Notes: a model not told the origin generated them from the letters alone. A stretch of DNA of 64,000 bases from Elusimicrobiota bacterium (GCA_016218575.1 JACRDN010000016.1:129306-193305); one strand, 5' to 3'; positions 1 to 26,349 are shown, numbered from the stretch's first letter. Numbers and translations: made by a program.

Positions 1-130
1 GCCGAGCAGGCGGCCCGCGAATGCCGCAGCTAAGGCGGGCGAGCCGGCTAAATGGACGTGAATTACGTCGTATAGAGGAGCCTGACGCCAAAGGTAGATG
101 AACAGCGAGGCCATGAAACTAGCCGCATTT

Positions 131-161
131 AAAAATCCGGCTCCCCTGCAGGGGAGCCGGA
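131..161 (-). terminator. Rho-independent terminator ending the long minus-strand pil/glycosylation operon
   Basis: Perfect 11-bp inverted repeat TCCGGCTCCCC-TGCA-GGGGAGCCGGA at 136-161. Read on the minus strand, the stem is followed directly by TTTTTAAAT (plus 131-135 AAAAA). It lies about 180 bp downstream of the last minus-strand gene (end 338). Confidence 0.7.
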
Positions 162-337
162 TAACGGGAATCCCCCTCACGAATTCTCGACAAGAAAGGC
201 CCGGAAGCTTTCTGGTCAGGACGCGCACTCCCAGCCCGCGGCGCTGAAGCGCCACGGACAATTCCAACGCCTGATTCTCCGCTCCCCCGATGGATGGATG
301 GAAGCTCGCGCTCACCATCACGACGCGCAAGGCCGCT

Positions 338-1360
338 TCAGCCATGCTTGCGGCCGAGTATCCCGGGCTTGGGGACAAGCCCATGGGCCAAGATCTTGAG
401 CGGGTCAAAGCCGGCCTCCACGAACCAGGAGGCGAGCTCCTCCTTGGTGTGGTGGTATTGGTAGGGAGGGGCCAGCCAATCGAAGTTTTCTATCAGCCTC
501 ACGCGAAAGCGGGGGTGAACGGAAAAAGTGAGATACTTGATTCCCGGCAGGGCCCCGGCAAGGGCCAGAGGAAAGCACAGGACGTAGAGCAGGGGGATCG
601 GTAGGCGAGTAGTGAACATGCGCAGAAAGTCGCTGATCCAATGCCGCAGCGTAACAATGACCCAGGCCAGGCGGCGCCGCCGCCGGACCCAGGCGCGATC
701 CTCCCGGATGGGGTTGGTCGCGAACTCCTCGAACTTTCCCGCCTTGCCGTAAACCCAGACGCTTAAAAATCCGCCAGGCCTGACTCTTTGCGCGACCTGG
801 CGGAAGGCTTGCCCCGTGCCGGGAGCATGATGCAGCACTCCCTGGCTGTAGACGATGTCGAAGGCCCCTTTCTTCAAGGGCAGGCGCAGGAGGTCTCCCT
901 GCACCAGGTGCAGTCGGGGCTCGGCCTCGGCCGCTTGGCGCAGGCGCTCGAGACTTTCGGAAAGGTCCAGGGCCACGACCTCGGCCCCCAGGCTCAACGC
1001 CTCCAGGGCGTAACGCCCCATGCCGCAGCCCGCGTCGAGCACGAGCTTGCCCGCGAAGGCCTCGGCGGGTAGCTGGGTCTCCGCCAGGAATACCGCGCGG
1101 TCCTCGGGAAAGGACCCCGGATAGCGCATCCATTCCCACGCGAAGCTCTTGGCCGTGCGCCGATCCCGCCGGTCCTGCCCGGGGCCCAGGAGGCGGGGAA
1201 TGCCGCCTCTAATCGGATACTCCTTCCCGCAAGCCCGGCAGGCCAAACTCCCGAATTGCAGTTCGGTGACCTCCCGGGTCGGGTATTTCTCAAGCGCCGC
1301 GAATTTCATCTCCATGGCGCAGCAGGGAGAGGAAAGCCAGGTCAAAAGGCGCGGCTTCAT
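338..1360 (-). CDS. Class I SAM-dependent methyltransferase with N-terminal Cys-rich (Trm112-like Zn-ribbon) segment
   Basis: 340 aa. SAM-binding motif I VLDAGCGMGRYA, then acidic motif II (VVALDLS) and motif IV (LVQGDL). The N-terminus carries two Cys pairs (SSPCC ... CRACGK). The ATG overlaps the stop of the upstream gene (ATGA at 1357-1360). Confidence 0.75.
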   Translation of the reverse strand: MKPRLLTWLSSPCCAMEMKFAALEKYPTREVTELQFGSLACRACGKEYPIRGGIPRLLGPGQDRRDRRTAKSFAWEWMRYPGSFPEDRAVFLAETQLPAEAFAGKLVLDAGCGMGRYALEALSLGAEVVALDLSESLERLRQAAEAEPRLHLVQGDLLRLPLKKGAFDIVYSQGVLHHAPGTGQAFRQVAQRVRPGGFLSVWVYGKAGKFEEFATNPIREDRAWVRRRRRLAWVIVTLRHWISDFLRMFTTRLPIPLLYVLCFPLALAGALPGIKYLTFSVHPRFRVRLIENFDWLAPPYQYHHTKEELASWFVEAGFDPLKILAHGLVPKPGILGRKHG

Positions 1361-2337
1361 CGCCGCGCCTTTTCCAGGCCCGCCTTGAGCTCGCCCAAGG
1401 AAAGCCCGACGCGGTAAAGGAAAACCAAGCCCAAGAGCGTCACTATGAGGTACGACAGCATATGGCTGAAAAAAGCGTAGGCGAGAGCCTGATGGGGGCT
1501 CGCCCCGAAGGACTGCAAGAGGGACTTTACCATGGCCTCGAAGGTGCCGAAGGCCCCGGGAGCCGCGGGCAGGGCCGCCCCGGCTCCGGCCCAGGACAAA
1601 ATCAATATAGAGCGCGGGTAATCCACCATGGTCCCGAGGCCCAGGGACTGGGCTACGGCCCAGTAGAGCCCGGCGTCCACCCCCCAGAGGCCCAGGCTGA
1701 GCAGCGCGGCCTCGAGAGCGGTTTTAGGATCGGCCAGGGCCGCGGCTCCCTGCGCCAAGGGCAGGACCAGGCTTTGGACCTTGGGCCAGGGCTTAAGACG
1801 CTCCCTCAAGGCTCCCCCCGGTTGGAGCAGGCGCCTGGCCAAAACCAGGAAGCACAGGGCGCCGGCGATTCCGCAAAGGAGCAGGAGGGCTGCGCGGCGC
1901 AGGGCCGCCGGAACCAAGGGCGAGCCGACGCTGGCCGCGCAGAACAAGGTCAGAAGCGCGGCCACGTCCAGGACCCTTTCGACGGCGACGCTCGCCAAGG
2001 CGGTCAGCCAGGAAATTCCGAGCTCGCGCCCGGCCAGGAAAGCCCGGGCCAACTCGCCCAGGCGCAGGAAGAGCACGTTATTGACGGAAAGCCCGATCGC
2101 CTCGAGCCTCAGGCAGGCCCAAAAGCACTCCTTTTTGGATAACAGCAAGGTCCAGCGCCGCGAGCGCACCACGAGATCAAGGAGAACGATGCCCGACATC
2201 ATGGGCACCCAGCGCCAGCGCGCGCAGGCCAGAACCAACCAAAGCTCGGAAAGCGCCACGTTGCGCAGGGCCAGCCCCAGGAAAACCGCGGTGAAGGCCA
2301 GCCCCCCCGCCATGGAGAGAGCCTTGCCGTACTTCAT
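1357..2337 (-). CDS. UPF0104 / lysylphosphatidylglycerol-synthase-TM (flippase-like) family integral membrane protein
   Basis: 326 aa from the internal start MKYGK (the six-frame ORF extends upstream to 2607). Multiple TM helices and the family signature NNVLFLRLGELARAFLAGRELGISWLTALASVAVERVLD. The ATG overlaps the upstream stop (ATGA at 2334-2337). Confidence 0.65.
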   Translation of the reverse strand: MKYGKALSMAGGLAFTAVFLGLALRNVALSELWLVLACARWRWVPMMSGIVLLDLVVRSRRWTLLLSKKECFWACLRLEAIGLSVNNVLFLRLGELARAFLAGRELGISWLTALASVAVERVLDVAALLTLFCAASVGSPLVPAALRRAALLLLCGIAGALCFLVLARRLLQPGGALRERLKPWPKVQSLVLPLAQGAAALADPKTALEAALLSLGLWGVDAGLYWAVAQSLGLGTMVDYPRSILILSWAGAGAALPAAPGAFGTFEAMVKSLLQSFGASPHQALAYAFFSHMLSYLIVTLLGLVFLYRVGLSLGELKAGLEKARR

Positions 2338-4184
2338 GCCAAAAACCTCCGCGTCCAGAAAACGCCGCCGTAGATCCAGAGCCCGACGCTGAGCATGACC
2401 CAAACCGGCCAAAACGTGGGTCGGAAAATAATATCGATCTCTGCCGTGGAGGAATGGAAGTCGGCAGCATTCAAGAACTGAAGGAAGCCCTCCCAACGGC
2501 CAAGCGGAACCTCTTGGCCGTTTACATAGGTCCTCCAGCCCGGGTAGAAAGGCTGGGCCAAGACCAGGCTCCCGGCCTCGCCGGGGACGCGGGCCCGCAG
2601 ACGCCAATGCTCCGGGCGCGCGATTTCGAGTTTCACGTAATTTTTGACGGCGGCCCCGGAAAGGCCGACGAAATAAGCCAAAGGCAGGGCGGCGGGATTA
2701 TGACGCCATTGCCCGTCTTCGGCCAGGAAATATTTCACCCCCAGACGGCTCATCTCGAGAGTTTCGTGGCGGCGCAGATAGCCTCGGCTGGCGTCCACCG
2801 CGGCGCGGCCTTCGCTCTTGGCCGCGTACTCCGGGAAAGCCGAGAGAAAAAAAGCCTCGTAGCCGTTCACGTTCATGGCGCGGTAGAGCATGGTTTTATT
2901 GGGGTTGGCAAGCTCTGGATCGGTAATGAGCCGCCAAGCGCCTCCCCCCATTTGCTGGGCGAAGCTGGCGCTAGGCCTAAGATAGGGCAGGTTCTCCTCG
3001 GGGCGCAGATATGCCCAGTCCCAAACCAGGAGGTCCAAAGCCAAAACGGCAACCAACGTTCCCCCAGCTCCAGCGGAAAACCGCCTTCGCCGCTGGAGCA
3101 GCTTCCACCCCGCCCCTGCGGCCAGGATCAAGCCCCAAAGGCATAAAAACAAATAGCGGGAGGGAGTCCTTAAAAACCCGAGGGGGGTCCAAGACAGAAG
3201 GGCGCGGTAGAAGGGATTGCGGCCGCCAGAGGCCAGGAAGAGGCCCGCGCCCAATAAAATCCAGCTCCGCCGCGCCTTGCCCGAACAGAGACCGAAAGCC
3301 GCCAGGACCAGGCCCAAAAGCCCTACGTAGACCCCGGAGGTCTCGAAAAATACCGAGGGAGGGCCGGAGTAGCCGCCGCCCACCGGACTGCCCCAGGCTC
3401 CGGGGAAGAGCCACGAGGCCAAGGTTTTCAGCTCGAAGGAGTAGCCCAAGGCGAAGTCGAGCGGCCAGCCCCGGCGCCCCGATTGACCCAAAAATTCCAA
3501 AGTGGGCGCGGACTGGACCGCGCACAAGCCCAAAGCCAGGAGACCCTCGCGCGCCAAGGCGCGCCCGGTCTTGCCGATGGAGGGCGAGGAAGCGGCCCAA
3601 AGAGCCAAGGCCATGGCGTTGGCGATCATGAACTGCGGGTGCCCGGAAAGGAACTGCAAAGCCCAGCAGGCGGCAAGGGCCCCAGGGGCGCCGCTGAGCC
3701 ACGCGAGCCAGCACCAAGGCGCCCAGGCCAGGCTCGAGAGCAGGGTGGGGATCCCCTCGGTTATCCGGTACACCAAGAAGGGGGAGAGGGCGTAGGCCAA
3801 AGATAGGGATAAGGAGCCGGAGCTCGATAGCCTTTGGCTCCGGCTCAGAAGAAAAATCCCCAATCCCGACCAGAACACGTGGAAAAGACAATCCCAGCTC
3901 AACGCCAGGCTCAGCGGGAATATCCCGCATAGCGCGGAAACGGGATAAAAAAACGCCGCTTGGGAATTGGCCAGCAGGGGAAGGCCCGCGAAGATGTAGG
4001 GATTCCAGAAGGGCAGGCGCCCGGCCTGGAGCGAGCTCCATGCCAGGTGGCGCAGGGGATAATGGTAAGTATAGAGGTCTCCAAAATTTTTGAAGGAAAG
4101 GCCCGGGCAGAGCCAGACTGGAAAAGAAATCGCCAAGATGAGCAGAGCCCAGACAACGAGCAAGGAAAAATCCCTGGGTGTCAT
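2334..4184 (-). CDS. YfhO-family polytopic membrane protein (GT-C type glycosyltransferase candidate)
   Basis: 616 aa, at least 12 TM segments. N-terminal block FGDLYTYHYPLRHLAWSSLQAGRLPFWNPYIFAGLP is typical of YfhO-like proteins. A large C-terminal periplasmic domain follows. The ATG at 4184 overlaps the upstream stop (ATGA). Confidence 0.6.
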   Translation of the reverse strand: MTPRDFSLLVVWALLILAISFPVWLCPGLSFKNFGDLYTYHYPLRHLAWSSLQAGRLPFWNPYIFAGLPLLANSQAAFFYPVSALCGIFPLSLALSWDCLFHVFWSGLGIFLLSRSQRLSSSGSLSLSLAYALSPFLVYRITEGIPTLLSSLAWAPWCWLAWLSGAPGALAACWALQFLSGHPQFMIANAMALALWAASSPSIGKTGRALAREGLLALGLCAVQSAPTLEFLGQSGRRGWPLDFALGYSFELKTLASWLFPGAWGSPVGGGYSGPPSVFFETSGVYVGLLGLVLAAFGLCSGKARRSWILLGAGLFLASGGRNPFYRALLSWTPLGFLRTPSRYLFLCLWGLILAAGAGWKLLQRRRRFSAGAGGTLVAVLALDLLVWDWAYLRPEENLPYLRPSASFAQQMGGGAWRLITDPELANPNKTMLYRAMNVNGYEAFFLSAFPEYAAKSEGRAAVDASRGYLRRHETLEMSRLGVKYFLAEDGQWRHNPAALPLAYFVGLSGAAVKNYVKLEIARPEHWRLRARVPGEAGSLVLAQPFYPGWRTYVNGQEVPLGRWEGFLQFLNAADFHSSTAEIDIIFRPTFWPVWVMLSVGLWIYGGVFWTRRFLA

Positions 4185-6124
4185 TTTTGGAGCGCCATGA
4201 AAAGCCGCGCTCGATTATACCAATAGCGGGCCAGCGCCAGGAGAGAGGCTAAAGTCAGAGCCAGCCCCCAGCGGAAGCTCGCTGGCCGGTAGAGGAAATG
4301 AAGGGTCCACGGCCCCGGAGGCGCCAATAGCTTTTGGAAGGCCCCCAAGGCGGGAAGGCTGTCCACCTCGGCGGCCCGGGGCGGAGCCTCAAGCCATGAC
4401 CGCCACCCGGGATAGCGCGGCAGGGAAACGTAGATCCAGCGCGGCTTGTCCTCGTCGCCAAATATCTGGAGCCGGTCCTCGCGCGGGCTCTGCCAGGCAA
4501 GTGGCGAGCCTGGCTCGCCGTCGAGCCAGGCGATAGAAAGTGCTTCCGGAAGTTTCTGTCCATCCTCCAGGCTCAACGCGTAAGCTCGCGAGATCCGCCC
4601 CTTTTTCCGGTAGATCCGCCAGAGAACGCTTCCCTCATGACTCAGCCCCGGGGATCCGGCCAGGGGCTTCGGCGTCATCAGATAACGGATGCCGGCCCAG
4701 GGAAAAAAGGCCGCGGCGGCCTGCGCGCTCGGCGCCCGGTAAAGGGCGTCCATCCACTCGTAGTTGCGCCGCGGCACCAGGGGCTCCCCGAAGTTGGCGG
4801 CAGCACTCAGGCGGAAGGGGGCGTTGGTGAGGCCGTAAAGCCGGTGCTTCCAATCCCAAACGTCGGAGCCCTCGTGCTTTTCCAAGGCCAGGGGAGAGAG
4901 AAGATACCGGTCGGGGCCTAGGCGATTTTGTAGCAGTCGCACCAAGGGCCCGGCCGATGTGAAGAGTCCCCTTGGTGCGGTGGGTGAGCCTCCAATGGCG
5001 TACAGGAAAAGTTCGCCAGCTATCGCCGCCAAAATCCAAGGAGAGCGTTTGCCCATTCCCACTGCCGTCAACAGGGCCAAGGCGGGCAAGGCTAAATAGG
5101 CCATATTCCCCGGATAGCGCACGAAGCGCAGAGGCGCGAAATGAGCCCAAAGCCAAGCCGAAGCCACGTTGGAGTCTCCCAAAAGAAGGAGAGCCGTGAA
5201 CGCCAAAAAAACCGCAAGAAGCGCGGCCCTCCGAGTCTTGAGCCCCGCCAGGCCCAGCACCGCCAGGGAAAATCCCGAGAATCCGATATAGCTGCATTGC
5301 CACCATCGCCTCGCCGGATCGAAGCTCCGGGAGAGCCACGGACTCACCCATTGCCACAAATCCCTCGGCGCGTAGCCAAAGCGCAGGGCCTCCTCCAGAC
5401 CGAGGCCCCCCGAGCGCCTGGAATTGGCGAAAAGCTCGAGGGCTGGAAGTAATAGGCAAGCCGTTAAAAGAAGAGCCTGTGCCCCTCCCAGCGTCCAAGC
5501 TCTGGCGGCTTCCAAAATTGTCTTGCCCTTCCGAAAATTGGCGAGCGCCAAAAATAGAATCCAAGCCGCCGCCATGGACCCGGCCAGGAAGGGCGGATAG
5601 CCCGCCCAGAAGGCTAGAGACAGCGACAAACCTAGAAGAGCGGGCCGTCGGAAAAATAGAAGAAAAGCGGGAACCAAAGACAGCAAAGCCAGATGATTGA
5701 GAAAAGGCAGGCGGCTGGCAAGGAACCCTCCCAGCCCGTAGCAAAGTCCCCCGGCCCAGCAGGCCCGGCGCGGAAGTCCCAGGGACCTCAGCCATAGAGC
5801 CGTCAATAAGCCCGCCAGCCAATAATGGAAAAGCTGAAACAGGGCCGCGGCCGTGGCGAAGCCGAAAATCATGAAGAGGGCGTTTCCCGGGTAGAAAAAG
5901 GAGTCCTGCATGGTGGCGGCCTGGGGCATGCCCATGTAGAGGTAGGGATTCCAGAGAGGGACCCGCCCTTGGGCCAAAGATTGGGCTTGGAACGCCTTCC
6001 AGGGATGGTGGATGTAGGTAAGGTCTCCCCAGAAAAAAGAAAGGCCGCGGCACCAGACCGGCAAAAACAACGCCAATAGGACGCAAAGCCAAAGCCCCGC
6101 CGCCGCGAGATCGCGGTCCCTCAT
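4181..6124 (-). CDS. YfhO-family polytopic membrane protein, paralog of 2334-4184
   Basis: 647 aa from internal start MRDRDLAAAGLW (the six-frame ORF runs to 6496; the internal start gives an ATGA overlap with the upstream gene at 6121-6124). Carries the same block as its neighbour: FWGDLTYIHHPWKAFQAQSLAQGRVPLWNPYLYMGMP. Confidence 0.6.
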   Translation of the reverse strand: MRDRDLAAAGLWLCVLLALFLPVWCRGLSFFWGDLTYIHHPWKAFQAQSLAQGRVPLWNPYLYMGMPQAATMQDSFFYPGNALFMIFGFATAAALFQLFHYWLAGLLTALWLRSLGLPRRACWAGGLCYGLGGFLASRLPFLNHLALLSLVPAFLLFFRRPALLGLSLSLAFWAGYPPFLAGSMAAAWILFLALANFRKGKTILEAARAWTLGGAQALLLTACLLLPALELFANSRRSGGLGLEEALRFGYAPRDLWQWVSPWLSRSFDPARRWWQCSYIGFSGFSLAVLGLAGLKTRRAALLAVFLAFTALLLLGDSNVASAWLWAHFAPLRFVRYPGNMAYLALPALALLTAVGMGKRSPWILAAIAGELFLYAIGGSPTAPRGLFTSAGPLVRLLQNRLGPDRYLLSPLALEKHEGSDVWDWKHRLYGLTNAPFRLSAAANFGEPLVPRRNYEWMDALYRAPSAQAAAAFFPWAGIRYLMTPKPLAGSPGLSHEGSVLWRIYRKKGRISRAYALSLEDGQKLPEALSIAWLDGEPGSPLAWQSPREDRLQIFGDEDKPRWIYVSLPRYPGWRSWLEAPPRAAEVDSLPALGAFQKLLAPPGPWTLHFLYRPASFRWGLALTLASLLALARYWYNRARLFMALQK

Positions 6125-7590
6125 GGCCGGGCGGCGCGCAAGGCCGGGCAGAATAGAGCTCCATGCCCCATGGCTTGGAGGGCTCTCCCGGGCTCGCCCA
6201 ACTCCAGGTAGACACGACTGAGCGCCGACCAGGATGAGGCGCGGTAAGGGTTGAGTTCCGTGGAAACCTCGAGGTGCGCCGCGGCCCGGACCAAATGAGC
6301 CCCGCGGTCGGGACCGGCCTTGGCCAGGCCCATCTCCATCTCCGCGGCGTAACGCTCGGTCTCGGGATGGCGCAAGAGGTGAGACGAGCCCTCCAAAAGA
6401 GACAAGACCTCCCCCGGGGGGGCTCCGCTCTTGGCCTTCTCGACGGCTTGGGCCTTGAGCCTGTCGGCTTGCCACCCTCTCCAGGTCCAGGAGCAAAGCC
6501 CGTAAGCCAGAGTCGCGACCAAAAGGCCCAAGGGGAGCTTGCGCCCGGAGGCGATGTTTACCCCGCGCTTGCTTTCCGATATGGTCGAGGCCGAGAAATA
6601 GCAGAAAAGCCAGAAATTAGCCGGGATGGAGAGGGAATAGTCCCATAGGGATTGGATCAGGATGGCCACGGCCCCGAAGCGCTTATGGGAGCCCCCGCGC
6701 CGCAGACAATGCAGAAGCCCGGCCGTCCAGATCAGCACATAGGGTAGCCCGCTTTCGGCGGCCGTTTCCAAGAAGTGCTGGTGGGCATAAAGCGCGGAGA
6801 GATCCACCCCCGGCCTCTGATAGGCAGGCAGGGCGTAGGCGAAGCTATTCGGACCCAGGCCCAACCAAGGCCGGTCCCAAACCATGCGCAGGGCCGCCTG
6901 CCACCAGTACCAGCGATGCAGGACGTCCGGCGACTTGAGCTTGGCGTATATGATGACCAGACAGACCAGGCCGATGGCCGTGCCCACGCGGTAGGCCGCG
7001 GAGCCGGCCTGGCGCCGGTTGAGCGTCAAGGCCCCGGCCAGGCCCAGCCAAGCTCCGACGCTGCGCGACCAAGCCAAGGCGCACAAAAGCCCGGCGCAGA
7101 GGATCCAGTCCCTCTTTTGAACGCAAAGGGGAAGCAGCATGAGCACCGTTCCCGCGAAAATATTCTGGTTGAGGAAGGCGCTGGAAGGCCTTTCGATCCC
7201 CTGCCGGAAATGCTGGTAGAACGCCAAGAGGACCAGGACCCAGGCGACGGCGCGAACGGCCTCGTCCACGGCCGAGCGCTCGTCCTTGGAGACCGCCATG
7301 ATCGCCGGAAAAATCCACAGTCCCAGGAGGAGGGCCCTCCAGGCCGGGATGGAGTAGCTCGCAACCGGGCTTGAGAACGCCGCCCAGCCGGAGAGTGCGG
7401 CCAAGACTCCGGTCCAGGCCAGGTTCCTGGTGGAGGGAAGGGGAAAGTAGCCCACGAAGAGCCGAAAAAGGACCCATAGGGCGGATCCGCAGACGACCGC
7501 GATAAAAAGGAGGGATTGCGCCCAAAGGTCCCAACTCCCCCGGAGCAGCGGGCCCCCCGCGACCAGGAGCCCGATGAGCAGCGGAAGCAC
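6121..7590 (-). CDS. Wzy_C / O-antigen-ligase-family membrane protein (WaaL/PglL/TfpO-like) with C-terminal soluble helical region
   Basis: 489 aa, about 10 TM segments. Periplasmic loop motif YAHQHFLETAAESGLPYVL matches the H-x-x-[FY]-L-[EQ]-x-x-[AG]-E-x-G signature of O-antigen ligases and O-oligosaccharyltransferases. GTG start at 7590, 10 nt after the pilQ stop. Confidence 0.65.
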   Translation of the reverse strand: MLPLLIGLLVAGGPLLRGSWDLWAQSLLFIAVVCGSALWVLFRLFVGYFPLPSTRNLAWTGVLAALSGWAAFSSPVASYSIPAWRALLLGLWIFPAIMAVSKDERSAVDEAVRAVAWVLVLLAFYQHFRQGIERPSSAFLNQNIFAGTVLMLLPLCVQKRDWILCAGLLCALAWSRSVGAWLGLAGALTLNRRQAGSAAYRVGTAIGLVCLVIIYAKLKSPDVLHRWYWWQAALRMVWDRPWLGLGPNSFAYALPAYQRPGVDLSALYAHQHFLETAAESGLPYVLIWTAGLLHCLRRGGSHKRFGAVAILIQSLWDYSLSIPANFWLFCYFSASTISESKRGVNIASGRKLPLGLLVATLAYGLCSWTWRGWQADRLKAQAVEKAKSGAPPGEVLSLLEGSSHLLRHPETERYAAEMEMGLAKAGPDRGAHLVRAAAHLEVSTELNPYRASSWSALSRVYLELGEPGRALQAMGHGALFCPALRAARP

Positions 7591-7600
7591 GATGAGAGCG

Positions 7601-9505
7601 CTAGTCCTGGAGAATCTTGGTCGTGACGAAGATCAAGAGCTCGTTGCGGGTCCTGGTCAGGGCCTTTTTCTTGAAGAACCAGCCCAAGAGCGGAATGTCC
7701 CCGAGCAGGGGAACCTTGGCGATGGTGTTGCTCATGGTGTCGCTGATGAGGCCACCAATGACTATGGTCTCGCCGTCGCGCACCAGGATGGTGGTCTTGG
7801 CGTTGCGCGAGTCCACGGCCGGGGCCCCGGTGGCGCTGGCCGCGATCGTGGAGGAAGGTTGGCTCACCACGGGGTTGAGATCGAGGGTGATGCGCCCGTC
7901 GGCGTTGATGCTGGGGGTCACCGAGAGCTGGATGCCGGTGACGGCGTAGGACACGGTCTGGGTCTGCACGCCGGTCGAGGCGACGTTGGAGGTGACGTAG
8001 GGAATCGAGGTCGTCACGTTGATGTTGGCGGCCTGGTTGTTCAAGGTCGCGACCTTGGGGTCGGAGAGGACCTTCACCTTTCCTTGGGTCGCGGCGGCCG
8101 AGAGAGTGGCGGAGAGGAAGTACGTGTTCGTAATGCGCCCGATCGTAAGCGCCCCGAATATGGAGGAGGCCGGCAGGCTCACGCCCGTGCCCCGCCCTCC
8201 AGCGCCCGGCCCGACCACCGCGGGCGTGGCGTTAAGATCCAAGGGCCTGGCCTGAGCCGTGGCGACGGGGCTCTCGTTGGTGCCGATGAGGTTGGTGCCC
8301 TGTTTGCCGCCGATGCGGGCCGGATCGAGGGACTTGTAGTCCCATTGGATGCCGTAGTGAAGGGAATTATTGAGGCTGACCTCGATGAGCTTGACCTCGA
8401 TGAGGACTTGCTTGGGGCGCACATCGAGCTGGGCCACCAGGCGCTCGGTCTCGGCCAGGCCCTCGATGGAGTCGGTGACGACCAAGGAATTGGTCTTGGC
8501 ATCGGATAGGGCCACGCCGGTGCTGCGCCCCTGGGCCAGGCGCACTTGGTTGACCATGGACAGGATCTCCGAAGCCTTGGTGTAGTTCAAGGGCAGCACC
8601 TTGGTGACGGTGGCGGCCGCGGACTGGGCCTTGGCCAGGGCCCCGGGAGTCAGAATCCTGAGTATGTTGTCTCCCACCTGGGTGGTGGACAGGTTGGTCA
8701 TGGAGAGAATGGTCCGAAAGGCCTCGTTGAAGGGGACGTCGGCCAGATGCAAGGTCAAAGTCCCGTTCACGTCGGGTCCGTAAATGATGTTGATCTTGGC
8801 CTTGGCCGACAGGAGCTTGATGATATCCTTGATGTCGGTGCCGTCGAAATCCAGGGAGACCGGATCCTTGGGCAGGCGGCTCATGATGTCGGCCCTCGGC
8901 GCCCGCGGACTCCCCGAGCCGGCCTTGGCCGGGCGCGCTTCCGGCGTCGGCGGCGGCTCCTTGGCGGCTTGCTCATCTATGTTGACGTCGGACTTGGCCG
9001 CCATGGCGGCAAGCTCCGAGGCCGCCTGGGTATTGACTCCTCCCGCCTCGCGGGCCGGACCGGCCGCGGCTGGGACCTGGACCTTGGGCCGAGGCTTGCC
9101 CTCGGGGTCGGGCCCCAAGCGCACGGTAAGGACGTTGTCCTCCTTGAGGACCTTATAGCCCGCCGGCTCGGAGAGGTCCATGACCACCCTCGCGATCATG
9201 GCGGGGCTCCTCTGGAACTGCCCGACGCGCACGCCCTTTAAGTATTTCCCCTTGCCGGCCCAAGACTTAGCACCCAGGCTGTTCTCGGCGCCCATGAGCT
9301 CCAGGACGACGCGAGGCGAGGGGGAGGCCGTGGTGAAGGCGTTGTACTCGGCCTCCTCGCTCAACAAAACTTGGACTTGATCGGGGCTCACCTCGAGGCT
9401 GGTGAGATACGCGGTCTCGGCGGCCCACGCCGGCAGGGCCGCGCCGCCGGGCAAGATCAGGACGACCGCCAGGACCCAGGCCAGGCTTTTCTTGAGTAGT
9501 GTCAC
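7601..9505 (-). CDS. pilQ: Type IV pilus secretin PilQ
   Basis: 634 aa. Signal peptide, N-terminal AMIN-like domain, and the C-terminal secretin signature (...VRDGETIVIGGLISD...VPLLGDIPLLGWFFKKK...). GTG start overlaps the pilP stop (GTGA). Confidence 0.9.
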   Translation of the reverse strand: MTLLKKSLAWVLAVVLILPGGAALPAWAAETAYLTSLEVSPDQVQVLLSEEAEYNAFTTASPSPRVVLELMGAENSLGAKSWAGKGKYLKGVRVGQFQRSPAMIARVVMDLSEPAGYKVLKEDNVLTVRLGPDPEGKPRPKVQVPAAAGPAREAGGVNTQAASELAAMAAKSDVNIDEQAAKEPPPTPEARPAKAGSGSPRAPRADIMSRLPKDPVSLDFDGTDIKDIIKLLSAKAKINIIYGPDVNGTLTLHLADVPFNEAFRTILSMTNLSTTQVGDNILRILTPGALAKAQSAAATVTKVLPLNYTKASEILSMVNQVRLAQGRSTGVALSDAKTNSLVVTDSIEGLAETERLVAQLDVRPKQVLIEVKLIEVSLNNSLHYGIQWDYKSLDPARIGGKQGTNLIGTNESPVATAQARPLDLNATPAVVGPGAGGRGTGVSLPASSIFGALTIGRITNTYFLSATLSAAATQGKVKVLSDPKVATLNNQAANINVTTSIPYVTSNVASTGVQTQTVSYAVTGIQLSVTPSINADGRITLDLNPVVSQPSSTIAASATGAPAVDSRNAKTTILVRDGETIVIGGLISDTMSNTIAKVPLLGDIPLLGWFFKKKALTRTRNELLIFVTTKILQD

Positions 9506-9963
9506 TTTGGCTCCTCCTCCCCTAATCGGAAAACCTGCACGTCCTTGTCCTCGGTCATCAGATGGGCCGTCTTCTTTTTCACGTTGATGGAGCCGGCCAC
9601 GCCCGCGACCATCTTGCCCCGATCGTCGTAAAGCTTCCCCTTGCGAAGAATGAAGCTGACTCCGAAATTGTTGTCGTTGAAAAGGGCGTACTCCACGCCG
9701 GAATCCTTCATGATCCCCTTGAGAGAGAGGTTGTGAATGTTGAAATCCTCCCGGTCGAAGGGCTTGCCGGTGTTGGCGCGCGATGAGCCGCTGGCGGCTG
9801 GGGTGAAGGGATCGCGCAGCTTTTCCACGGTATAGATGGAGCCGACGCTCGGCGCCGGCGCCGTGGAGGCCTTGACCTCGACCGGTTTGCCTCCCGGCTC
9901 GAGAGCTTGAGTCGAGACTCCGGCTAGGAACATCAAGACAGCCAAAACTTTCGCCATGTCCAT
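9502..9963 (-). CDS. pilP: Type IV pilus assembly lipoprotein PilP
   Basis: 153 aa. Signal peptide, Pro/Ala-rich linker and a C-terminal beta domain. Position between pilO and pilQ. Confidence 0.8.
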   Translation of the reverse strand: MDMAKVLAVLMFLAGVSTQALEPGGKPVEVKASTAPAPSVGSIYTVEKLRDPFTPAASGSSRANTGKPFDREDFNIHNLSLKGIMKDSGVEYALFNDNNFGVSFILRKGKLYDDRGKMVAGVAGSINVKKKTAHLMTEDKDVQVFRLGEEEPK

Positions 9964-10511
9964 CAGCCCTTGTATTGGTACGAGATCAAGGTGAAGCTTA
10001 TCTGCATCTGCCCATCGGGGCCCGGCTCGGCGTAAACCACGTTCTGGACGTTGAATATCCTCTCCTCGAGCGCCAGGCCCGCCAGGAAGCGGCCGATATT
10101 GTGGTACGAGCCGCGCACCGAGATGGGATAGGAAAGCTCGATAAAGAAGGGCTTGTCCGTCTGGCCTCCGGGCGTAAAGCTCAGAAGCGAGACATGATGC
10201 TTGTCCGCCAACCCGCTCAAGGTCACCAGAATGTCGGGCACCGACTTGTTCTTGGGCAAACGCCTCTCCGCCTCCACCGCCTTTTGGCTGAGCTCCACCA
10301 GCTCGGCCTCCAGGCGCGGCAGGCGCGCGGCCTGCCGGGTGGCCTTCTCTATCTTGGCCTCGACCTCCTCGGTCTTCTTCTTGGTATCGGCGATGCGCTG
10401 GGAGACCGGGGACCAGAAGAACATGAAATAGCTGTAGCCGAAGCCCCCCAGGAGGAGAACCCCCAGGGCCGCGTACTTCTGCTGCTCCTTGGTCAGCTTG
10501 ATCTTGGCCAT
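9963..10511 (-). CDS. pilO: Type IV pilus assembly protein PilO
   Basis: 182 aa. N-terminal TM, coiled coil and C-terminal ferredoxin-like domain. Conserved pilM-N-O-P-Q gene order. Confidence 0.8.
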   Translation of the reverse strand: MAKIKLTKEQQKYAALGVLLLGGFGYSYFMFFWSPVSQRIADTKKKTEEVEAKIEKATRQAARLPRLEAELVELSQKAVEAERRLPKNKSVPDILVTLSGLADKHHVSLLSFTPGGQTDKPFFIELSYPISVRGSYHNIGRFLAGLALEERIFNVQNVVYAEPGPDGQMQISFTLISYQYKG

Positions 10512-10512
10512 G

Positions 10513-11073
10513 TCAAAGCTGCGGCGTGTAAACCGAAATCAAAGTGAAGGTGTAGACCCGCTCCGCCCCGTCCACGGCGGTCACCGGCCCCATCTCGACT
10601 TGTCCGAACCGCCCGGACTGCTCCAGCTTCTTGATCCAAGCCGCGATATCCTCGTTGCTGCGGGAATCGGCGGACAGAGAAATCTTGAGCGGCCCGGCAG
10701 CGCTTCCCCCTCCCGAGGTGCTCAGGCTTTTCACGCGCACTCCCATGGGCACGCTGCGCACGAAATCCGACATGAAATACGGGTAAAGGGGGCGACCCTT
10801 TAGAAGGTCCGTGATCACGGAGAGCCTCGAGCGCACCGCCCCCGCCGTCTTCTCGAGCTCCTCGACCTTGGCCACGACCACCTCGAGCTTCTTGAGCTGG
10901 GCCTGCTGGGTCGCGGCATGTCTCTCCAGCCTTTTGAGTTTGAACCAATGCGCCACTGAAATGCCCACGACGAGCAGCAGGATGAACCCAGCCCCCACGC
11001 CGGCCTGGATCATCTGCTGTTTCTGCTGAGCCTTGGCCAGGATCTCAGCCGGAACAAGATTGATCTTGATCAT
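10513..11073 (-). CDS. pilN: Type IV pilus assembly protein PilN
   Basis: 186 aa. Starts MIKINLVP, a typical PilN N-terminus, then a single TM and a coiled coil. Confidence 0.8.
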   Translation of the reverse strand: MIKINLVPAEILAKAQQKQQMIQAGVGAGFILLLVVGISVAHWFKLKRLERHAATQQAQLKKLEVVVAKVEELEKTAGAVRSRLSVITDLLKGRPLYPYFMSDFVRSVPMGVRVKSLSTSGGGSAAGPLKISLSADSRSNEDIAAWIKKLEQSGRFGQVEMGPVTAVDGAERVYTFTLISVYTPQL

Positions 11074-11080
11074 GCTTGTC

Positions 11081-12241
11081 TCACACCCAATCCCGGTTGC
11101 GCCTGAGCGCCAATCCCAGGGCCACGGCGAAATCCGGGGCCAGCTCCTTGGGGAAATCCGCGGGAATCTGCTTCAAGAATGATAGAGGATCAAGCACGCT
11201 CACCGGCACCTTGAGCTCGGCGGTCAAATGCTTGGCGAGGTTCTTGACCTTGGCCGTTCCCCCCATCAGGACGATTCGCCCGATCGAGCGCTCGGCTCCC
11301 TGAGACAGATAAAAATCCACGGACCGATGGACTTCCCCGACCAGATCCTTGACCACGGTGACTATGGTCTGGGAAACGGCGAGCGCCTCCTGCTGGCCCT
11401 GTTCCACGGCCTTCTCCTTTTCCGCCGCCTCCAGGACTATCCCATGCGCCTTCTTAAGCTCCTCGGCCTTCATGAAGTCGTTCTGCATGGCCTTGGTGAT
11501 CGCCTTGGTCAAGGTCGCGCCCGATATGAAAATATCGCGCACCACGCGGGTGACTCCATTCTCGATAATGGAGAGGTTGGTCACCATATGCCCCAGGTTA
11601 AGGTAAAGGGTGGCGCCCATCTCGGATTTGGGGTCGCGCAACCTTTCATAAATGTTCTCGAGGGCGAAGGAATCCACGTCCACGATCGTGGGGAAGAGCC
11701 CCGCGGCCTGGAGAATCTCGAGCCGGGCCGCGATCAAGTCTTTCTTCGCGGCCACGAGGACGGTTTCCATTTTTTTCTGGCCTTCCTCTGTGATCTCGCT
11801 CAGGATGTGGGCGCCTAACTGGACCTCGTTGATGTCGAAAGGAATGAAGGGCTCGGCCTCGGTGGGCAAGGTCGCGGCGAGCTCCGTCTTGGTCAGCCTG
11901 GGAAATTTGACGTAGCGCACGATCACCGAGTTCCCGGAGAGAGTGGTGGCCGCGTCCTTGATCTTGACGCCCTTCTCGACAAGGAAGGCTTTAAGGGAGT
12001 TGATGGTCTGGGCCTTGCGCTCGTCGGCCGTGGCCTCGGGCTTGATGTTGAGGGGGAGGTGCCCCCAGGTCTTGAGGACCGGCCCCGCGCTTTCCTGCTT
12101 GACGTGGGCGATCTTGATGGCGTAATTGCCCATGTCCACGGCCAGGAGATCGGGAGAGCCCATGAGGAACTCCGAGAACCCCTTGGCCTTCTTGAGGGCT
12201 TCTCCCAGAGCTTCCTTTACCTTGTCCAATTTTATAGGCAT
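11081..12241 (-). CDS. pilM: Type IV pilus assembly ATPase-fold protein PilM
   Basis: Actin/FtsA-like fold with conserved N-terminal block LLAVDMGNYAIKIA. Start chosen at ATG 12241 (386 aa). An alternative ATG at 12163 (MGSPDLL) has a GGAG 6 nt upstream. The six-frame ORF extends to 12349. Confidence 0.8.
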   Translation of the reverse strand: MPIKLDKVKEALGEALKKAKGFSEFLMGSPDLLAVDMGNYAIKIAHVKQESAGPVLKTWGHLPLNIKPEATADERKAQTINSLKAFLVEKGVKIKDAATTLSGNSVIVRYVKFPRLTKTELAATLPTEAEPFIPFDINEVQLGAHILSEITEEGQKKMETVLVAAKKDLIAARLEILQAAGLFPTIVDVDSFALENIYERLRDPKSEMGATLYLNLGHMVTNLSIIENGVTRVVRDIFISGATLTKAITKAMQNDFMKAEELKKAHGIVLEAAEKEKAVEQGQQEALAVSQTIVTVVKDLVGEVHRSVDFYLSQGAERSIGRIVLMGGTAKVKNLAKHLTAELKVPVSVLDPLSFLKQIPADFPKELAPDFAVALGLALRRNRDWV

Positions 12242-12407
12242 AAAAAAAGCCGAAAATCCCCTCCGTTTCAGGGGGGTGTACTCGGCGTTTTTGCCGTCGT
12301 GAAAAGCGACGGCAAGTGCATTTATAACAGGTATGGGGAGCTTTGTCAAGACAAAGCAGTTACATAATTATTAAGGAAAGGAGACAAGCCAGGATCAATG
12401 ATTTTTG

Positions 12408-12413
12408 TATAAT
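12408..12413 (+). promoter_or_regulatory. Candidate -10 hexamer TATAAT for the plus-strand inositol cassette (short or leaderless transcript)
   Basis: TATAAT at 12408-12413 lies 6 nt upstream of the ATG at 12420, with no Shine-Dalgarno sequence. The region 12242-12419 is divergent from pilM. Confidence 0.35.
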
Positions 12414-12419
12414 AGAAAA

Positions 12420-13085
12420 ATGCCTTTTATTTTGTTCGATTTCGGGGGAACCTTGGATGGTCCCGGAACTCCCTGGCTTGAGCGTTTCCACGGCATTTAC
12501 CGCGCCGAAGGCCTGGATTTCGCGCGCGAGCGCTTCAGCCAGGCCTTTTACCGGTCGGATGACGAGCTTGCCTCGCGCTTTTCCCTGCGGGGCTTGAGTC
12601 TCGCCGAGACTTTGGAGCTGCAGGTGCAATGCGTTTTGGAAATTTTAGCTCCCGAAAAAATCGGGCTCAAGAGCCGCCTGGCCGGGCTTTTCCTAGAGGA
12701 GTGCCGACGCCATTTTCGCGGAAATCGCCCCATCCTCGAGCGCTTGAGCCGCCGCCACGGCCTCGGCATAGTTTCGAACTTTTACGGCAACCTTCGAAGC
12801 GTCTTAGATAGCGAGGGACTCCTGTCCTTCTTCCAATGCGTGGCCGATTCCGGGGCGCTCGGGATGGAGAAACCCCAGCCCGGCATATTCTTGGAAGCCC
12901 TCAAGGGCTTGAAGGCCGCCCCCGAGGAAACCTTCATGGTCGGCGATTCCGTGGCCCGGGACATGCGCGGCGCGGAAAACCTGGGCCTCAAACACGTGCT
13001 TCTATCCCCTTCCAAAAAAACCCGCTGCTGCCCGCAAGGCCTGCGCATCGAACGACTGGACGAGCTCGAGGCGGTCCTGCCGTGA
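12420..13085 (+). CDS. HAD-superfamily hydrolase (phosphatase)
   Basis: 221 aa from ATG 12420 (the ORF track begins at TTG 12405). Motif I ILFDFGGTLDG is the DxGGT variant of the HAD DxDGT motif. Motif IV reads MVGDSVARDMRGAENLG. Confidence 0.7.
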   Translation: MPFILFDFGGTLDGPGTPWLERFHGIYRAEGLDFARERFSQAFYRSDDELASRFSLRGLSLAETLELQVQCVLEILAPEKIGLKSRLAGLFLEECRRHFRGNRPILERLSRRHGLGIVSNFYGNLRSVLDSEGLLSFFQCVADSGALGMEKPQPGIFLEALKGLKAAPEETFMVGDSVARDMRGAENLGLKHVLLSPSKKTRCCPQGLRIERLDELEAVLP

Positions 13086-13780
13086 TTCGACACGCGGGCG
13101 TCATAGCGGCCGGAGACGGCCTCCGGCTCCAAGGAGCGATCGGGGCAACGGTCAAGCCCATGGCTCCCGTGGCCGGGGTCCCCTTGGTCCATTGGGTGGT
13201 GCGCTCCCTGCGCGGGGCCGGCATCGAGAGCTTCACGGTCATACTCAATTCCCGGGGAAACGCCGCCAGGGAGAGCCTGGTAAGGGAATTCCCTGCCGTG
13301 TCCTGGACCTTCCTGGTCCAGGACACGGCTTCCTCATGGGAAAGCTTCAGGCTGGTGGCCCAAGCCCTCTCCCAAAAAGCCGACATCTTTCTCATGAGCA
13401 CGGTAGACGCCCTGATGCCTCCCCAAGAGGCCGAGCGCTTCGCCCGGGAGGCTGCGACGAGCCCCGCCCCGGCGGGGCTGGCCCTCACCTCCTTCATGGA
13501 CGACGAGAAGCCGCTTTGGGCGGAGCTGGGGGAAAACGGCCTGGTCTCGGCCTTGGGGCCTTCCTGCCGAAGCCGCTCCCGGGCCACGGCGGGGCTCTAT
13601 TTCTTGACAAAGGCCGTCGCCGACGCCATGCCCGCGGCCGAGCGTCATTCCAAGCTGCGGGACTATTGGCAGTCCCTGCTCGATTCGAAGACTCCCGTGG
13701 CCGGAATCGCCCTGGGAAAGACCTTGGACGTGGATAGGCCTCGGGATCTCGCGGCCGCGGAGCGTTTCGCCACATGGTGA
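13082..13780 (+). CDS. Nucleotidyltransferase (MobA/IspD-like NTP-transferase fold)
   Basis: 232 aa. GTG start overlaps the HAD stop (GTGA at 13082-13085). Glycine-rich N-terminus GVIAAGDGLRLQG...KPMAPVAGVPLVHW matches the GxGxR(L) sugar-/alcohol-phosphate nucleotidyltransferase signature. The six-frame ORF is extended upstream to 12836. Confidence 0.6.
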   Translation: MIRHAGVIAAGDGLRLQGAIGATVKPMAPVAGVPLVHWVVRSLRGAGIESFTVILNSRGNAARESLVREFPAVSWTFLVQDTASSWESFRLVAQALSQKADIFLMSTVDALMPPQEAERFAREAATSPAPAGLALTSFMDDEKPLWAELGENGLVSALGPSCRSRSRATAGLYFLTKAVADAMPAAERHSKLRDYWQSLLDSKTPVAGIALGKTLDVDRPRDLAAAERFATW

Positions 13781-14628
13781 GCGCGCTCGGCATTTTCCGC
13801 GAGCTCCATAACTCCCCCAACCGGGAGAACGACGACGCGGCCATCCTCAAGGCCGTCATGGAGCAGTTGGAGCTCCTGAAAGTCCGGGCCATGGTCCTGG
13901 ATCCCGAGGCCGCGGACCAGCAGGATTTGAAGGCCTGGGACATGCTGGTTCCCATGTGCGAGTCCTATGCCAGACTCATGCGCCTCAAGGCCTTGAAGGG
14001 TTCCGGGGCTCCCGTCATCGTCAACTCTCCAGAAGCGGTGCTGGCCTGCTACAGGACCGAGATGCTGGCGGCCTTCGAGCGCTCGCCCGAGCTCGATTTC
14101 CCGGAAACAGAACTGAGAATAGTGACGGGCGATCGCCCGCAGCCTTTCCCGGCTTTCGGCTCGTCCACGGGGGTATGGGCCAAGCGCGGGGACGTGCACA
14201 ACACCCGCGGCGGCCGCGATGTGGTCTTCGCGAAGTCCTCCCAGGAGCTCGAGGCCGTCCGCAAGGATTTCGCCCGACGCGAGATCACTCACATGCTTCT
14301 GCAAAGGCACGTCGACGGAGACCTGATCAAATTCTACGGGGTCGGGCCCGGCCAGTGGTTCACCTGGTTCTATCATGACCCCGCCTCGGCCCGCAGGCTC
14401 TCCTTCGAGGTGGAGGAGCTGGCCCTCCAGGGAGAGCTCGCCGCGCGAGCCGTGGGGCTCGAGGTTTTCGGCGGCGACGCCATCGTGTCGGCCGCTGGAA
14501 CGATTTGCGTCATTGACATCAACTCCTGGCCGAGCTTCGCCCGCGTGCGGGCCGAGGCCGCGGTGCAGATCGCCAGGCACCTGCGCAAGAAGCTCACGAC
14601 CCTGCGGGTCCCGGGAAGACAACCATGA
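13774..14628 (+). CDS. ATP-grasp family ligase
   Basis: 284 aa. ATP-grasp elements present (...VWAKRGDVHNTRGG..., ...IKFYGVGPGQWFTWFYHD..., C-terminal GGDAIVSAAGTICVIDINSWPSF). ATG overlaps the upstream stop (ATGGTGA). Confidence 0.65.
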   Translation: MVSALGIFRELHNSPNRENDDAAILKAVMEQLELLKVRAMVLDPEAADQQDLKAWDMLVPMCESYARLMRLKALKGSGAPVIVNSPEAVLACYRTEMLAAFERSPELDFPETELRIVTGDRPQPFPAFGSSTGVWAKRGDVHNTRGGRDVVFAKSSQELEAVRKDFARREITHMLLQRHVDGDLIKFYGVGPGQWFTWFYHDPASARRLSFEVEELALQGELAARAVGLEVFGGDAIVSAAGTICVIDINSWPSFARVRAEAAVQIARHLRKKLTTLRVPGRQP

Positions 14629-23933: not shown

Positions 23934-23937
23934 GGAA

Positions 23938-24999: not shown

Positions 25000-25000
25000 A

Positions 25001-25885: not shown

Positions 25886-26349
25886 CCACGGAAACGATCT
25901 CATCCCAACCACCGGCCCTGCGCACCCTCGACGTCGCGGCCATCCGAAAGGCCATCCCCCACCGATACCCCTTCCTGCTGGTGGACAAGGTCGAGGTCCT
26001 CGAGGAGGACAAGAAGGCCGTGGGCACCAAGTGCGTGACCATCAACGAGCACTTCTTCCAGGGGCATTTCCCCGAGCACCCGGTGATGCCCGGGGTCCTC
26101 ATCCTCGAGGCCCTGGCCCAGACCGCCTGCGTCATGCTCCTTTCCAAGGGCAGCTACGAGAACAAGATCGCGTATTTCATGGGCATAGACGGAGCTAAGT
26201 TTCGCAGCCCAGTGCTGCCGGGCTGCGTGCTCAAGCTTAACGTGGAGGTCCTGCGCCTGGGGCGGGCGGGCAAATTCAAGGGCGAAGCCTTCGTGGACGG
26301 CAAGATGGCGGCCGAAGCCGAGATGTCCTTCGCCTTGGTGGACAAATAA
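25882..26349 (+). CDS. fabZ: 3-Hydroxyacyl-ACP dehydratase FabZ
   Basis: 155 aa. Hot-dog fold with the conserved block FFQGHFPEHPVMPGVLILEALAQ. ATGA overlap with lpxC. It is a separate gene, not fused to lpxC. Confidence 0.9.
   Translation: MTTETISSQPPALRTLDVAAIRKAIPHRYPFLLVDKVEVLEEDKKAVGTKCVTINEHFFQGHFPEHPVMPGVLILEALAQTACVMLLSKGSYENKIAYFMGIDGAKFRSPVLPGCVLKLNVEVLRLGRAGKFKGEAFVDGKMAAEAEMSFALVDK

Follow-up and report, generated by a model that had tools for sequence, protein, structure and literature searches.

On the minus strand of a 64,000-nucleotide stretch of DNA from an Elusimicrobiota bacterium (GCA_016218575.1 JACRDN010000016.1:129306-193305; hereafter the window), ten genes lie head to tail between positions 338 and 12241, running from pilM to a methyltransferase gene with overlaps or gaps of at most 10 nucleotides (nt). 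The first five are the type IV pilus genes pilMNOPQ. Behind them lies a glycan module consisting of a Wzy_C protein with a tetratricopeptide repeat (TPR) domain, two paralogous GT-C glycosyltransferases (G7 and G8), a flippase-like membrane protein of the LPG_synthase_TM family, and a methyltransferase dependent on S-adenosylmethionine (SAM). An earlier sequence-only reading of this DNA had proposed a pilus-linked O-glycosylation module; it had the genes and their coupling right, and the terminator and the end of the operon wrong. We find a secure, conserved fusion of a pilus alignment and secretin operon to a polyprenol-linked glycan pathway that acts on the outer side of the cytoplasmic membrane. 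The link between pilQ and the glycan module is real and non-classical, as proposed, and it is conserved, but the assignment to the PglL/TfpO family and the glycosylation of pilins are unproven. The sugar may be attached to pili or, somewhat more probably, to a different part of the cell envelope.

PilM, PilN, PilO, and PilQ all exceed the curated thresholds of their family models, and the genes stand in the order M-N-O-P-Q (Table 1). In addition to PF00263, where it scores above the cut-off, PilQ matches Secretin_N and STN and reaches 287.4 bits with TIGR02515 (cut-off 284.35). The PF04351 match of the PilP-like lipoprotein is weak; the position and size of its gene agree with those of pilP in relatives. 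The start of pilM, an ATG at 12241, was picked from a start-codon scan. We considered whether these genes might instead belong to a type II secretion system and rejected this, on the grounds that PilM and PilQ both score above the thresholds of their subfamily models.

Analysis of open reading frames (ORFs) and start codons confirmed the ten co-directional genes with their GTGA and ATGA overlaps. A 7-nt gap separates pilM from pilN and a 1-nt gap pilN from pilO; pilO and pilP overlap by 1 nt, and pilP and pilQ share a 4-nt GTGA. The Wzy_C gene follows pilQ after 10 nt, and each of the four junctions after it (Wzy_C/G7, G7/G8, G8/LPG_synthase_TM, and LPG_synthase_TM/methyltransferase) is a 4-nt ATGA overlap. 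The 10-nt gap had been described as the only one in the operon; it does exist, but so do those of 7 nt and 1 nt. The start codon of the Wzy_C gene is a GTG and its Shine-Dalgarno sequence is poor, both of which fit coupling to the translation of pilQ, and the glycan module is apparently translationally coupled behind pilQ.

Positions 1-13000 hold no excess of terminator-like or promoter-like sites over shuffled sequence. At the pilQ/Wzy_C junction, where either element would weigh against the proposed linkage, the scan (covering sigma-70-like sites in the case of promoters) gave no candidate for a terminator or a promoter. By ORF layout, the divergent intergenic region upstream of pilM is the sole non-coding stretch long enough to hold a promoter for the operon; promoter-like matches near it are only weak, and the same divergent arrangement of pilM and a HAD hydrolase gene is found in relatives. 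pilMNOPQ and the glycan genes are probably co-transcribed.

The operon does not end with the methyltransferase gene. The frame below it, open from position 489 to the window edge at position 1, encodes the start of a GT4 glycosyltransferase whose likely ATG (345-343) overlaps the methyltransferase stop codon by 8 nt (ATGGCTGA). In relatives, the gene after the methyltransferase is likewise a GT4 gene; residues 7-103 of one such protein (locus L003) match window positions 327-37 in a tblastn search with 61% identity (E 5e-23). Since the frame at 1-345 is GT4 and overlaps the methyltransferase stop, the operon comprises at least 11 genes and continues past the edge of the window. The strong terminator that had been placed at 131-161 as the end of the operon corresponds to a hairpin at 135-162 within the GT4 coding frame. 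This hairpin resembles an intrinsic terminator although it lies inside conserved coding sequence; it may have arisen by chance or may be an attenuation site within the operon.

Table 1 Features of the operon and its surroundings, and tandem Wzy_C-TPR loci in relatives (aa, amino acids).
Feature	Position	Strand	Evidence or remarks
pilM, 386 aa, first gene of the operon	11081..12241	-	PF11104 E 1.1e-46; TIGR01175 205.5 bits, cut-off 133
pilN, 186 aa	10513..11073	-	PF05137 E 1.5e-10, above cut-off
pilO, 182 aa	9963..10511	-	PF04350 E 7.5e-24, above cut-off
pilP-like lipoprotein, 153 aa	9502..9963	-	PF04351 E 4.2e-4, 20.7 bits, below cut-off of 25.6
pilQ secretin, 634 aa	7601..9505	-	Secretin E 9.3e-51; GTG start, strong GGAGG upstream
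Wzy_C/WaaL-fold glycan ligase-like protein with C-terminal TPR domain, 489 aa	6121..7590	-	GTG start, 10 nt past the pilQ TAG
G7, divergent YfhO-related GT-C glycosyltransferase, 647 aa	4181..6124	-	ATGA overlap with Wzy_C
G8, paralogue of G7, 616 aa	2334..4184	-	ATGA overlap; hhalign to G7 family
LPG_synthase_TM/TIGR00374 flippase-like membrane protein, 326 aa	1357..2337	-	PF03706 E 4.6e-37; TIGR00374 at cut-off
SAM-dependent class I methyltransferase with N-terminal Trm112-like zinc ribbon, 340 aa	338..1360	-	Methyltransf_11 E 1.3e-19
GT4 glycosyltransferase, 5' part, eleventh gene	1..345	-	runs off window
12-bp GC-rich (9 GC) hairpin followed by TTTTT	135..162	-	inside GT4 coding sequence, encodes ..IRLPCRGAGF..
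Divergent intergenic region between pilM and HAD hydrolase gene	12242..12404	.	ORF layout
Inositol cluster genes 1-4	12405-19528 (with genes 5-7)	+	HAD hydrolase; NTP transferase; 284-aa protein without Pfam match; class III aminotransferase
Inositol cluster genes 5-7	within 12405-19528	+	GFO/IDH/MocA oxidoreductase; CDP-alcohol phosphatidyltransferase; myo-inositol-1-phosphate synthase
Tandem Wzy_C-TPR loci in relatives	L079 180-3652; L080 1581-5412; L085 4800-8185; L086 7341-10365

The gene behind pilQ does carry the signature of an O-antigen ligase or O-oligosaccharyltransferase (O-OTase), as had been claimed. Its product scores 47.7 bits with the Wzy_C model (PF04932; threshold 31.7; E 1.8e-12), which all 47 members of its family also match, and the motif YAHQHFLETAAESGLPYVL is present. 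His270 within this motif is invariant in 47/47 homologues, as are R226, P241, G244, and G246 in the 47 sequences. The spacing of R226/P241/G244/G246/H270 resembles that of R298/P313/G316/G318/H349 in PglL (numbering of PMC3643930), a likeness in spacing only and not a residue-level alignment. Three of the 47 homologues match Wzy_C_2 (PF11846); a rescan of ten likely candidates recovered none of these three.

The AlphaFold model of this protein is confident (pLDDT 93.3), and its polytopic fold superimposes on the O-antigen ligase WaaL of Cupriavidus metallidurans (PDB 7TPG/7TPJ), its only solved structural relative, with 15% identity. Sequence searches of the PDB, with single proteins and with a Wzy_C profile, returned TPR proteins only and no match for the membrane domains. 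The family differs from WaaL at its C-terminus, where a 13th helix and a TPR domain of ~115 aa (residues ~375-489), both absent from WaaL, follow the WaaL-like core. The TPR domain is probably periplasmic, given the helix count past this core; a topology estimate from Kyte-Doolittle hydropathy and the positive-inside rule was too crude to place it. The protein is 100% identical to one from an Elusimicrobia metagenome-assembled genome (MAG). Its homologues number more than 250, and all those whose source name bears a taxon are from Elusimicrobia.

How does this protein compare with characterized ligases? All known O-OTase families have a Wzy_C domain with a required His (PMC9829042), and the window protein resembles PglL, PglS, TfpO, and TfpM in having the Wzy_C domain, with His270 as a candidate for the essential His, and in its link to type IV pili, here through gene neighbourhood. 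Its 489 aa fall between the 420-460 aa of TfpO and TfpM and the 525-600 aa of PglL and PglS (PMC9829042). TfpO and TfpM, however, have no extra domain and are encoded immediately downstream of their cognate pilin gene, whereas the window gene encodes a TPR domain and stands next to the secretin gene. In contrast to PglL, neither the window protein nor any of the 47 homologues matches PglL_A (PF15864) at E<=1, a model made to separate PglL from WaaL (PMC3643930). Among PglL homologues, 21 of 31 lie at pilin genes (PMC3643930); the window gene is not adjacent to a pilin gene, its upstream neighbour being pilQ. Its immediate neighbours are pilQ and the GT-C genes and not, as far as the scanned ORFs show, a core-oligosaccharide (waa) cluster of the kind in which WaaL is encoded. 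With no PF15864 match in the family, no adjacent pilin, and WaaL as the sole solved relative, we could not uphold the proposed membership of the PglL/TfpO family. O-OTases and WaaL are not separable by sequence and require functional assays (PMC3643930, PMC9829042), on which O-OTase family assignment also depends (PMC9829042).

G7 and G8 are full-length paralogues (BLASTP 3e-22), and alignment of the two families with hhalign gives a probability of 100% and an E value of 1.9e-46 over 568 columns. Both have the GT-C fold, with an N-terminal polytopic domain, an acidic residue in the first outer loop, and a large extracytoplasmic domain, and both carry an invariant Asp (D36 in G8) in a GDL-Y-H-P motif after the first helix. 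The closest solved structures of G7 include the mycobacterial GT-C enzymes of arabinan and phosphatidylinositol mannoside (PIM) synthesis AftD, AftA, AftB, and PimE. The two proteins had been described as paralogous, YfhO-like GT-C proteins. Paralogy and fold stand, but the window proteins fall below the Pfam YfhO model (PF09586; E 0.12 and 3.5, over a C-terminal stretch only; cut-off 28.5 bits) and have no NCBIfam match. Eight of 51 G7 orthologues do match YfhO (best E 1.3e-11), several of them carrying precomputed PF09586 annotations, and one of ten G8 orthologues does so marginally (E 0.0017). The description is acceptable only as a distant family relationship. In public records, both families are listed as "hypothetical proteins".

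The GT-C fold, the invariant N-terminal Asp, and the flippase-like gene alongside recall TfpW and the YfhO/GtrC-type systems built from a GT2 enzyme, a small flippase, and a GT-C enzyme (PMC5836110, PMC11127046), a pairing of GT-C and flippase genes being what one would expect where sugars are added outside the cytoplasm. There are several differences from these three-component systems. The flippase candidate in the window is of the MprF/LPG_synthase_TM type rather than GtrA/GtcA; the window part of the operon lacks a GT2 donor synthase, with GT2 found after GT4 in some relatives only; and there are two tandem paralogues below the YfhO threshold, replaced in some Elusimicrobia by a second Wzy_C-TPR gene.

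The last two genes of the module were also identified correctly, as a UPF0104 flippase-like protein followed by a SAM methyltransferase; PF03706 and TIGR00374 match the first, and Methyltransf_11 and Methyltransf_25 (E 1.5e-18) the second. The LPG_synthase_TM gene has a GGAGG upstream in addition to its ATGA overlap. No synthase domain was found in its product, where PF03706 alone spans nearly the whole length; in contrast to MprF, the protein consists of the flippase transmembrane domain without the C-terminal aminoacyl-phosphatidylglycerol synthase domain. The zinc ribbon of the methyltransferase matches Trm112p (E 0.0019) and Trm112_arch (E 3.2e-10).

To see how widely this arrangement occurs, we scanned one genome per species with a Wzy_C profile and mapped the content of the resulting 75 loci by tblastn with the window proteins. 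Seventy of these loci are labelled Elusimicrobia or Elusimicrobiota and the other five just "bacterium". pilQ lies directly upstream of Wzy_C in 70 of the 75, with a median gap of 7 nt; the gap is at most 50 nt in 57 of these 70, and in a few loci it is 180-1800 nt. The order pilM-N-O-P-Q-Wzy_C-G7-G8-LPG_synthase_TM-methyltransferase, facing a divergent inositol-related cluster, is near-universal. Where the flanking sequence is long enough, the gene after the module is GT4 in essentially all relatives; next come Wzx (Polysacc_synt), an AsnB-type amidotransferase, or both, in some cases with GT2, and further on the order varies.

Three loci without pilQ upstream (L044, L070, and L072) retain the core Wzy_C-LPG_synthase_TM-(methyltransferase)-GT4. 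In L044, the module is divergent from BamA and Skp genes, adjoining both, and lacks G7 and G8. In L070 (4-2915), Wzy_C is translationally coupled not to pilQ but to a gene for a PorV-like/FadL-like outer-membrane protein, itself preceded by a gene for a protein with Ig-like, FlgD_ig, and CHU_C domains. L072, a close relative of L070, has no pilQ within ~1.9 kb upstream, and the genes there are unannotated. In four divergent Elusimicrobia (L079, L080, L085, and L086), pilQ is followed by Wzy_C-TPR and a second Wzy_C-TPR paralogue in tandem (Table 1). No YfhO-like gene was detected in these four loci; the second Wzy_C gene stands in its place. LPG_synthase_TM comes next in L079 and L080, and GT4 and AsnB are present in L079, from an Elusimicrobiaceae MAG.

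In other loci, Wzy_C and G7 are separated by an additional gene of 1-1.6 kb (L001/L019 at 11461-13044, L022, L027, L041, L067, and L069); one such insert encodes a 527-aa protein without a Pfam match. G8 was undetected in L001/L019, L022, and L027 and is kept in L041, L067, and L069.

We also scanned in the reverse direction, running a PilQ profile on metagenome contigs (80 loci). Wzy_C-TPR follows pilQ only in five loci, those with PilQ identity of at least 41%, and in none of 49 more distant PilQ loci from other phyla with at least 1.5 kb of downstream sequence. The layout is indeed lineage-specific and not that of a classic pil operon, and we did not find it described in the searchable literature. 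That the arrangement departs from classic pil operons had been anticipated by the sequence-only reading.

The pilMNOPQ-aroK-aroB operons of Proteobacteria served as a control. They have the same five genes in the same order with same-strand genes after the secretin, but shikimate genes stand where the glycan assembly module lies here. aroK is downstream of pilQ on the same strand in 30 loci (L096-L161) of the 75 non-Elusimicrobia PilQ loci and aroB in 25 of 75; E. coli K-12 (L162, 3517398-3522751) has hofMNOPQ-aroK-aroB in the same order, with mrcA as the upstream divergent neighbour rather than an inositol cluster. We know of no role in pili for the shikimate-pathway genes aroK and aroB. Given that they are nonetheless conserved after pilQ, a conserved pilQ neighbour is by itself weak evidence for a pilus function.

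The G+C content is even, at 0.60-0.67, out to ~11000. AT skew on the plus strand is 0.16-0.47 over the membrane-enzyme genes (1-7500) and slightly negative over the pil genes (7500-12500). The change at ~7500 is most simply explained by the T-rich codons of polytopic membrane proteins encoded on the minus strand, not by foreign DNA. Horizontal acquisition of the module was rejected, given the uniform G+C, the codon-explained skew, and vertical conservation.

Upstream of the operon, the seven genes of the inositol-related cluster are divergent from pilM. Its CDP-alcohol phosphatidyltransferase has an N-terminal extension of ~190 aa, and its last gene, for myo-inositol-1-phosphate synthase, lies at 18098-19528. 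In most related Elusimicrobia loci with enough flank, the first six genes are likewise found divergent from pilM, and the content of the cluster suggests an (amino)inositol phospholipid or CDP-inositol pathway. Beyond it, at 20746-31881 (+), are genes for BamA, Skp (OmpH), LpxA, LpxI, a GFO/IDH oxidoreductase, LpxB, and an MsbA-like ABC transporter. The Bam, Skp, Lpx, and transporter genes lie 8-20 kb from the pilM end of the operon, with LpxA, LpxI, and LpxB 14-18 kb beyond pilM (~19-22 kb from the Wzy_C gene). As far as gene content goes, the Lpx, MsbA-like, and Bam genes show that the organism makes lipid A and that the operon lies in an envelope-biogenesis neighbourhood. A second sugar cluster at 49439-63947 (-) encodes a Polysacc_synt_2 (PglF/WbpM-type) dehydratase, a DegT aminotransferase, a class I/II aminotransferase, two GT4 glycosyltransferases, and an AsnB-type amidotransferase; this cluster is a possible source of the glycan used by the Wzy_C enzyme. 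No heptosyl- or Kdo-transferase was seen among those window ORFs that were scanned.

What pathway might these genes encode? We tentatively favour a pathway that makes an envelope glycan on a polyprenol carrier and that is both fused to the pilus operon and expressed along with it, a reading that we hold at a little below an even chance and for which we infer both the donor chemistry and the glycan acceptor. The region would be the beginning, 11 genes long, of a larger operon that was present in the ancestor of Elusimicrobiota and has been kept throughout the phylum. The cytoplasmic GT4 and SAM methyltransferase, with the AsnB-type enzyme and GT2 in relatives, would build the oligosaccharide on undecaprenyl (pyro)phosphate and modify it. 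Its passage to the periplasmic side would fall to a Wzx-type flippase, whose gene many relatives have a short way downstream, and on that side the WaaL-fold Wzy_C-TPR enzyme would transfer or polymerize the glycan onto an acceptor. The YfhO-related GT-C paralogues would add sugars from undecaprenyl-phosphate-linked monosaccharide donors, carried across the membrane by the MprF-type flippase-like protein. The acceptor would most likely be a non-pilin envelope molecule (the core of lipopolysaccharide (LPS), an O-antigen-like glycan, or another surface glycoconjugate), and the tie to the pilus would be one of co-expression or of a retained historical fusion and not an enzymatic one.

We favour this reading because the locus has the content of a Wzx/Wzy-type locus (Wzy_C and GT4, with Wzx and AsnB and/or GT2 in relatives), because PglL_A and an adjacent pilin are missing and structural similarity is to WaaL only, and because the operon lies near lipid A genes and the core module survives away from pilQ in three lineages. 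G7 and G8 also belong to the YfhO lineage, whose characterized members decorate cell-envelope polymers in three-component systems (PMC5836110, PMC11127046), and the aroK-aroB control weakens the argument from pilQ adjacency. If it is correct, Elusimicrobia possess a conserved, previously unannotated envelope glycan pathway with obligatory co-expression of pili and a surface glycan.

Several observations weigh against an envelope acceptor. The pilQ-Wzy_C junction is unusually persistent and tight, and it is kept in the four loci in which a second Wzy_C-TPR replaces the GT-C genes; this persistence suggests selection for the link itself. WaaL and Wzy enzymes normally have no TPR domain, and its presence here suggests a protein partner or a protein acceptor. 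In addition, the neighbourhood of the module showed no genes of the core-oligosaccharide (waa) type and none for Wzz or OPX/PCP export.

Pilus-linked O-glycosylation is a substantial possibility, though one more likely wrong than right. Here, Wzy_C-TPR would act as an O-OTase, moving a glycan from undecaprenyl pyrophosphate onto pilins, PilQ, PilP, or other periplasmic pilus proteins, with its TPR domain perhaps serving to dock it on the PilMNOP platform; the GT-C paralogues would extend or decorate the protein-bound glycan, by analogy with TfpW, which acts with D-arabinofuranose on Pseudomonas pilin. The phylum-wide coupling of pilQ and Wzy_C, retained when downstream partners change, is consistent with this, as are its confinement to the Elusimicrobia PilQ lineage and the extra helix and TPR domain after the WaaL-like core. 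So too is the invariant His270, given that known O-OTase families carry Wzy_C with a required His (PMC9829042), and GT-C enzymes are reported to be able to glycosylate pilins (TfpW preprint, 10.1101/2020.04.19.049825). On the other hand, the PglL_A motif is absent from the 47 members, no pilin gene is adjacent, three lineages keep the module apart from pilQ, and the gene content of the module is that of an ordinary polysaccharide locus. The aroK-aroB control shows that pilQ neighbours can be unrelated to pili, O-OTases and WaaL are inseparable by sequence, and the searchable literature holds no report of glycosylated Elusimicrobia pilins. A more specific form, in which Wzy_C-TPR docked to PilNOP/PilQ glycosylates pilins or the machine at the assembly site and the GT-C pair extends the protein-bound glycan, we regard as unlikely; it would constitute a fifth type of pilin O-glycosylation system, organized around the secretin operon and not the pilin gene. 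To our knowledge, characterized pilin O-OTases are all encoded beside pilin genes or belong to orphan general systems. If the module acts on pili, it would represent a new type of organization and would widen the supply of O-OTases and GT-C enzymes. Phage resistance, adhesion, and immune evasion are all influenced by pilin glycosylation, whose enzymes also serve in making conjugate vaccines. The phylum has a cultured species, Elusimicrobium minutum.

The inositol cluster brings up another candidate, a lipoglycan anchored on an inositol phospholipid and analogous to mycobacterial PIM, lipomannan, and lipoarabinomannan (LAM), which we consider improbable. The divergent cluster would make an inositol-derived lipid head group, a PimA-like GT4 would glycosylate the lipid in the cytoplasm, the flippase-like protein would flip it, and the GT-C paralogues and Wzy_C enzyme would extend it outside. 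The divergent inositol genes are conserved in most loci with enough flank, the closest solved structures of G7 include AftD, AftA, AftB, and PimE, GT4 is always present, and the LPG_synthase_TM-type protein is a lipid flippase-like module. The link between the clusters is purely positional, however, with pilMNOPQ between them; no acyltransferase or polyprenyl-phosphate-mannose synthase was identified; the Wzy_C enzyme has no counterpart in the LAM pathway; and in L044, L070, and L072 the module is present although the sequence at hand shows no inositol genes.

We give very little weight to the idea that the PilMNOPQ apparatus, in place of an OPX/Wza channel, exports a polymer made by the downstream genes. 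Gliding cyanobacteria offer a resemblance, as type IV pilus-like systems are tied there to the secretion of slime or hormogonium polysaccharide; the secretin gene is the immediate upstream partner of the module, and in relatives the 10 kb downstream showed no OPX/PCP export genes. Yet we know of no case in which a secretin passes a Wzy-type polymer in such a gene context, the presence of lipid A genes means that LPS could take the glycan and a dedicated channel would be unneeded, and the module exists without pilQ in three lineages. Finally, an unrecognized internal promoter might drive the glycan genes and adjacency be a neutral relic, as the evidently separate promoter of the L044 module divergent from BamA, the few loci with wide pilQ-Wzy_C gaps, and the restriction of our scan to sigma-70-like sites would allow, but this is very doubtful, since the gap, 10 nt in the window and 7 nt as the median of 70 species, is too short for a terminator, a promoter would have to lie inside pilQ, and the poor Shine-Dalgarno sequence and GTG start of Wzy_C fit translational coupling.

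Five sizeable ORFs of 282-549 aa elsewhere in the window have no Pfam match at the thresholds used: 24037-25362 (-), 34199-35848 (-), 45354-46202 (+), 48300-49442 (+), and 51355-52554 (-). We found no prepilin motif or gene in the 64-kb window. Among the 75 related loci, a prepilin gene is present in one, L030, where it is not adjacent to Wzy_C; at ~6813-7300 (+), a canonical prepilin (GFTLLEMLIVV...) is inserted between pilO and pilP. In L008 and L010, there is a gap of similar size between the same two genes.

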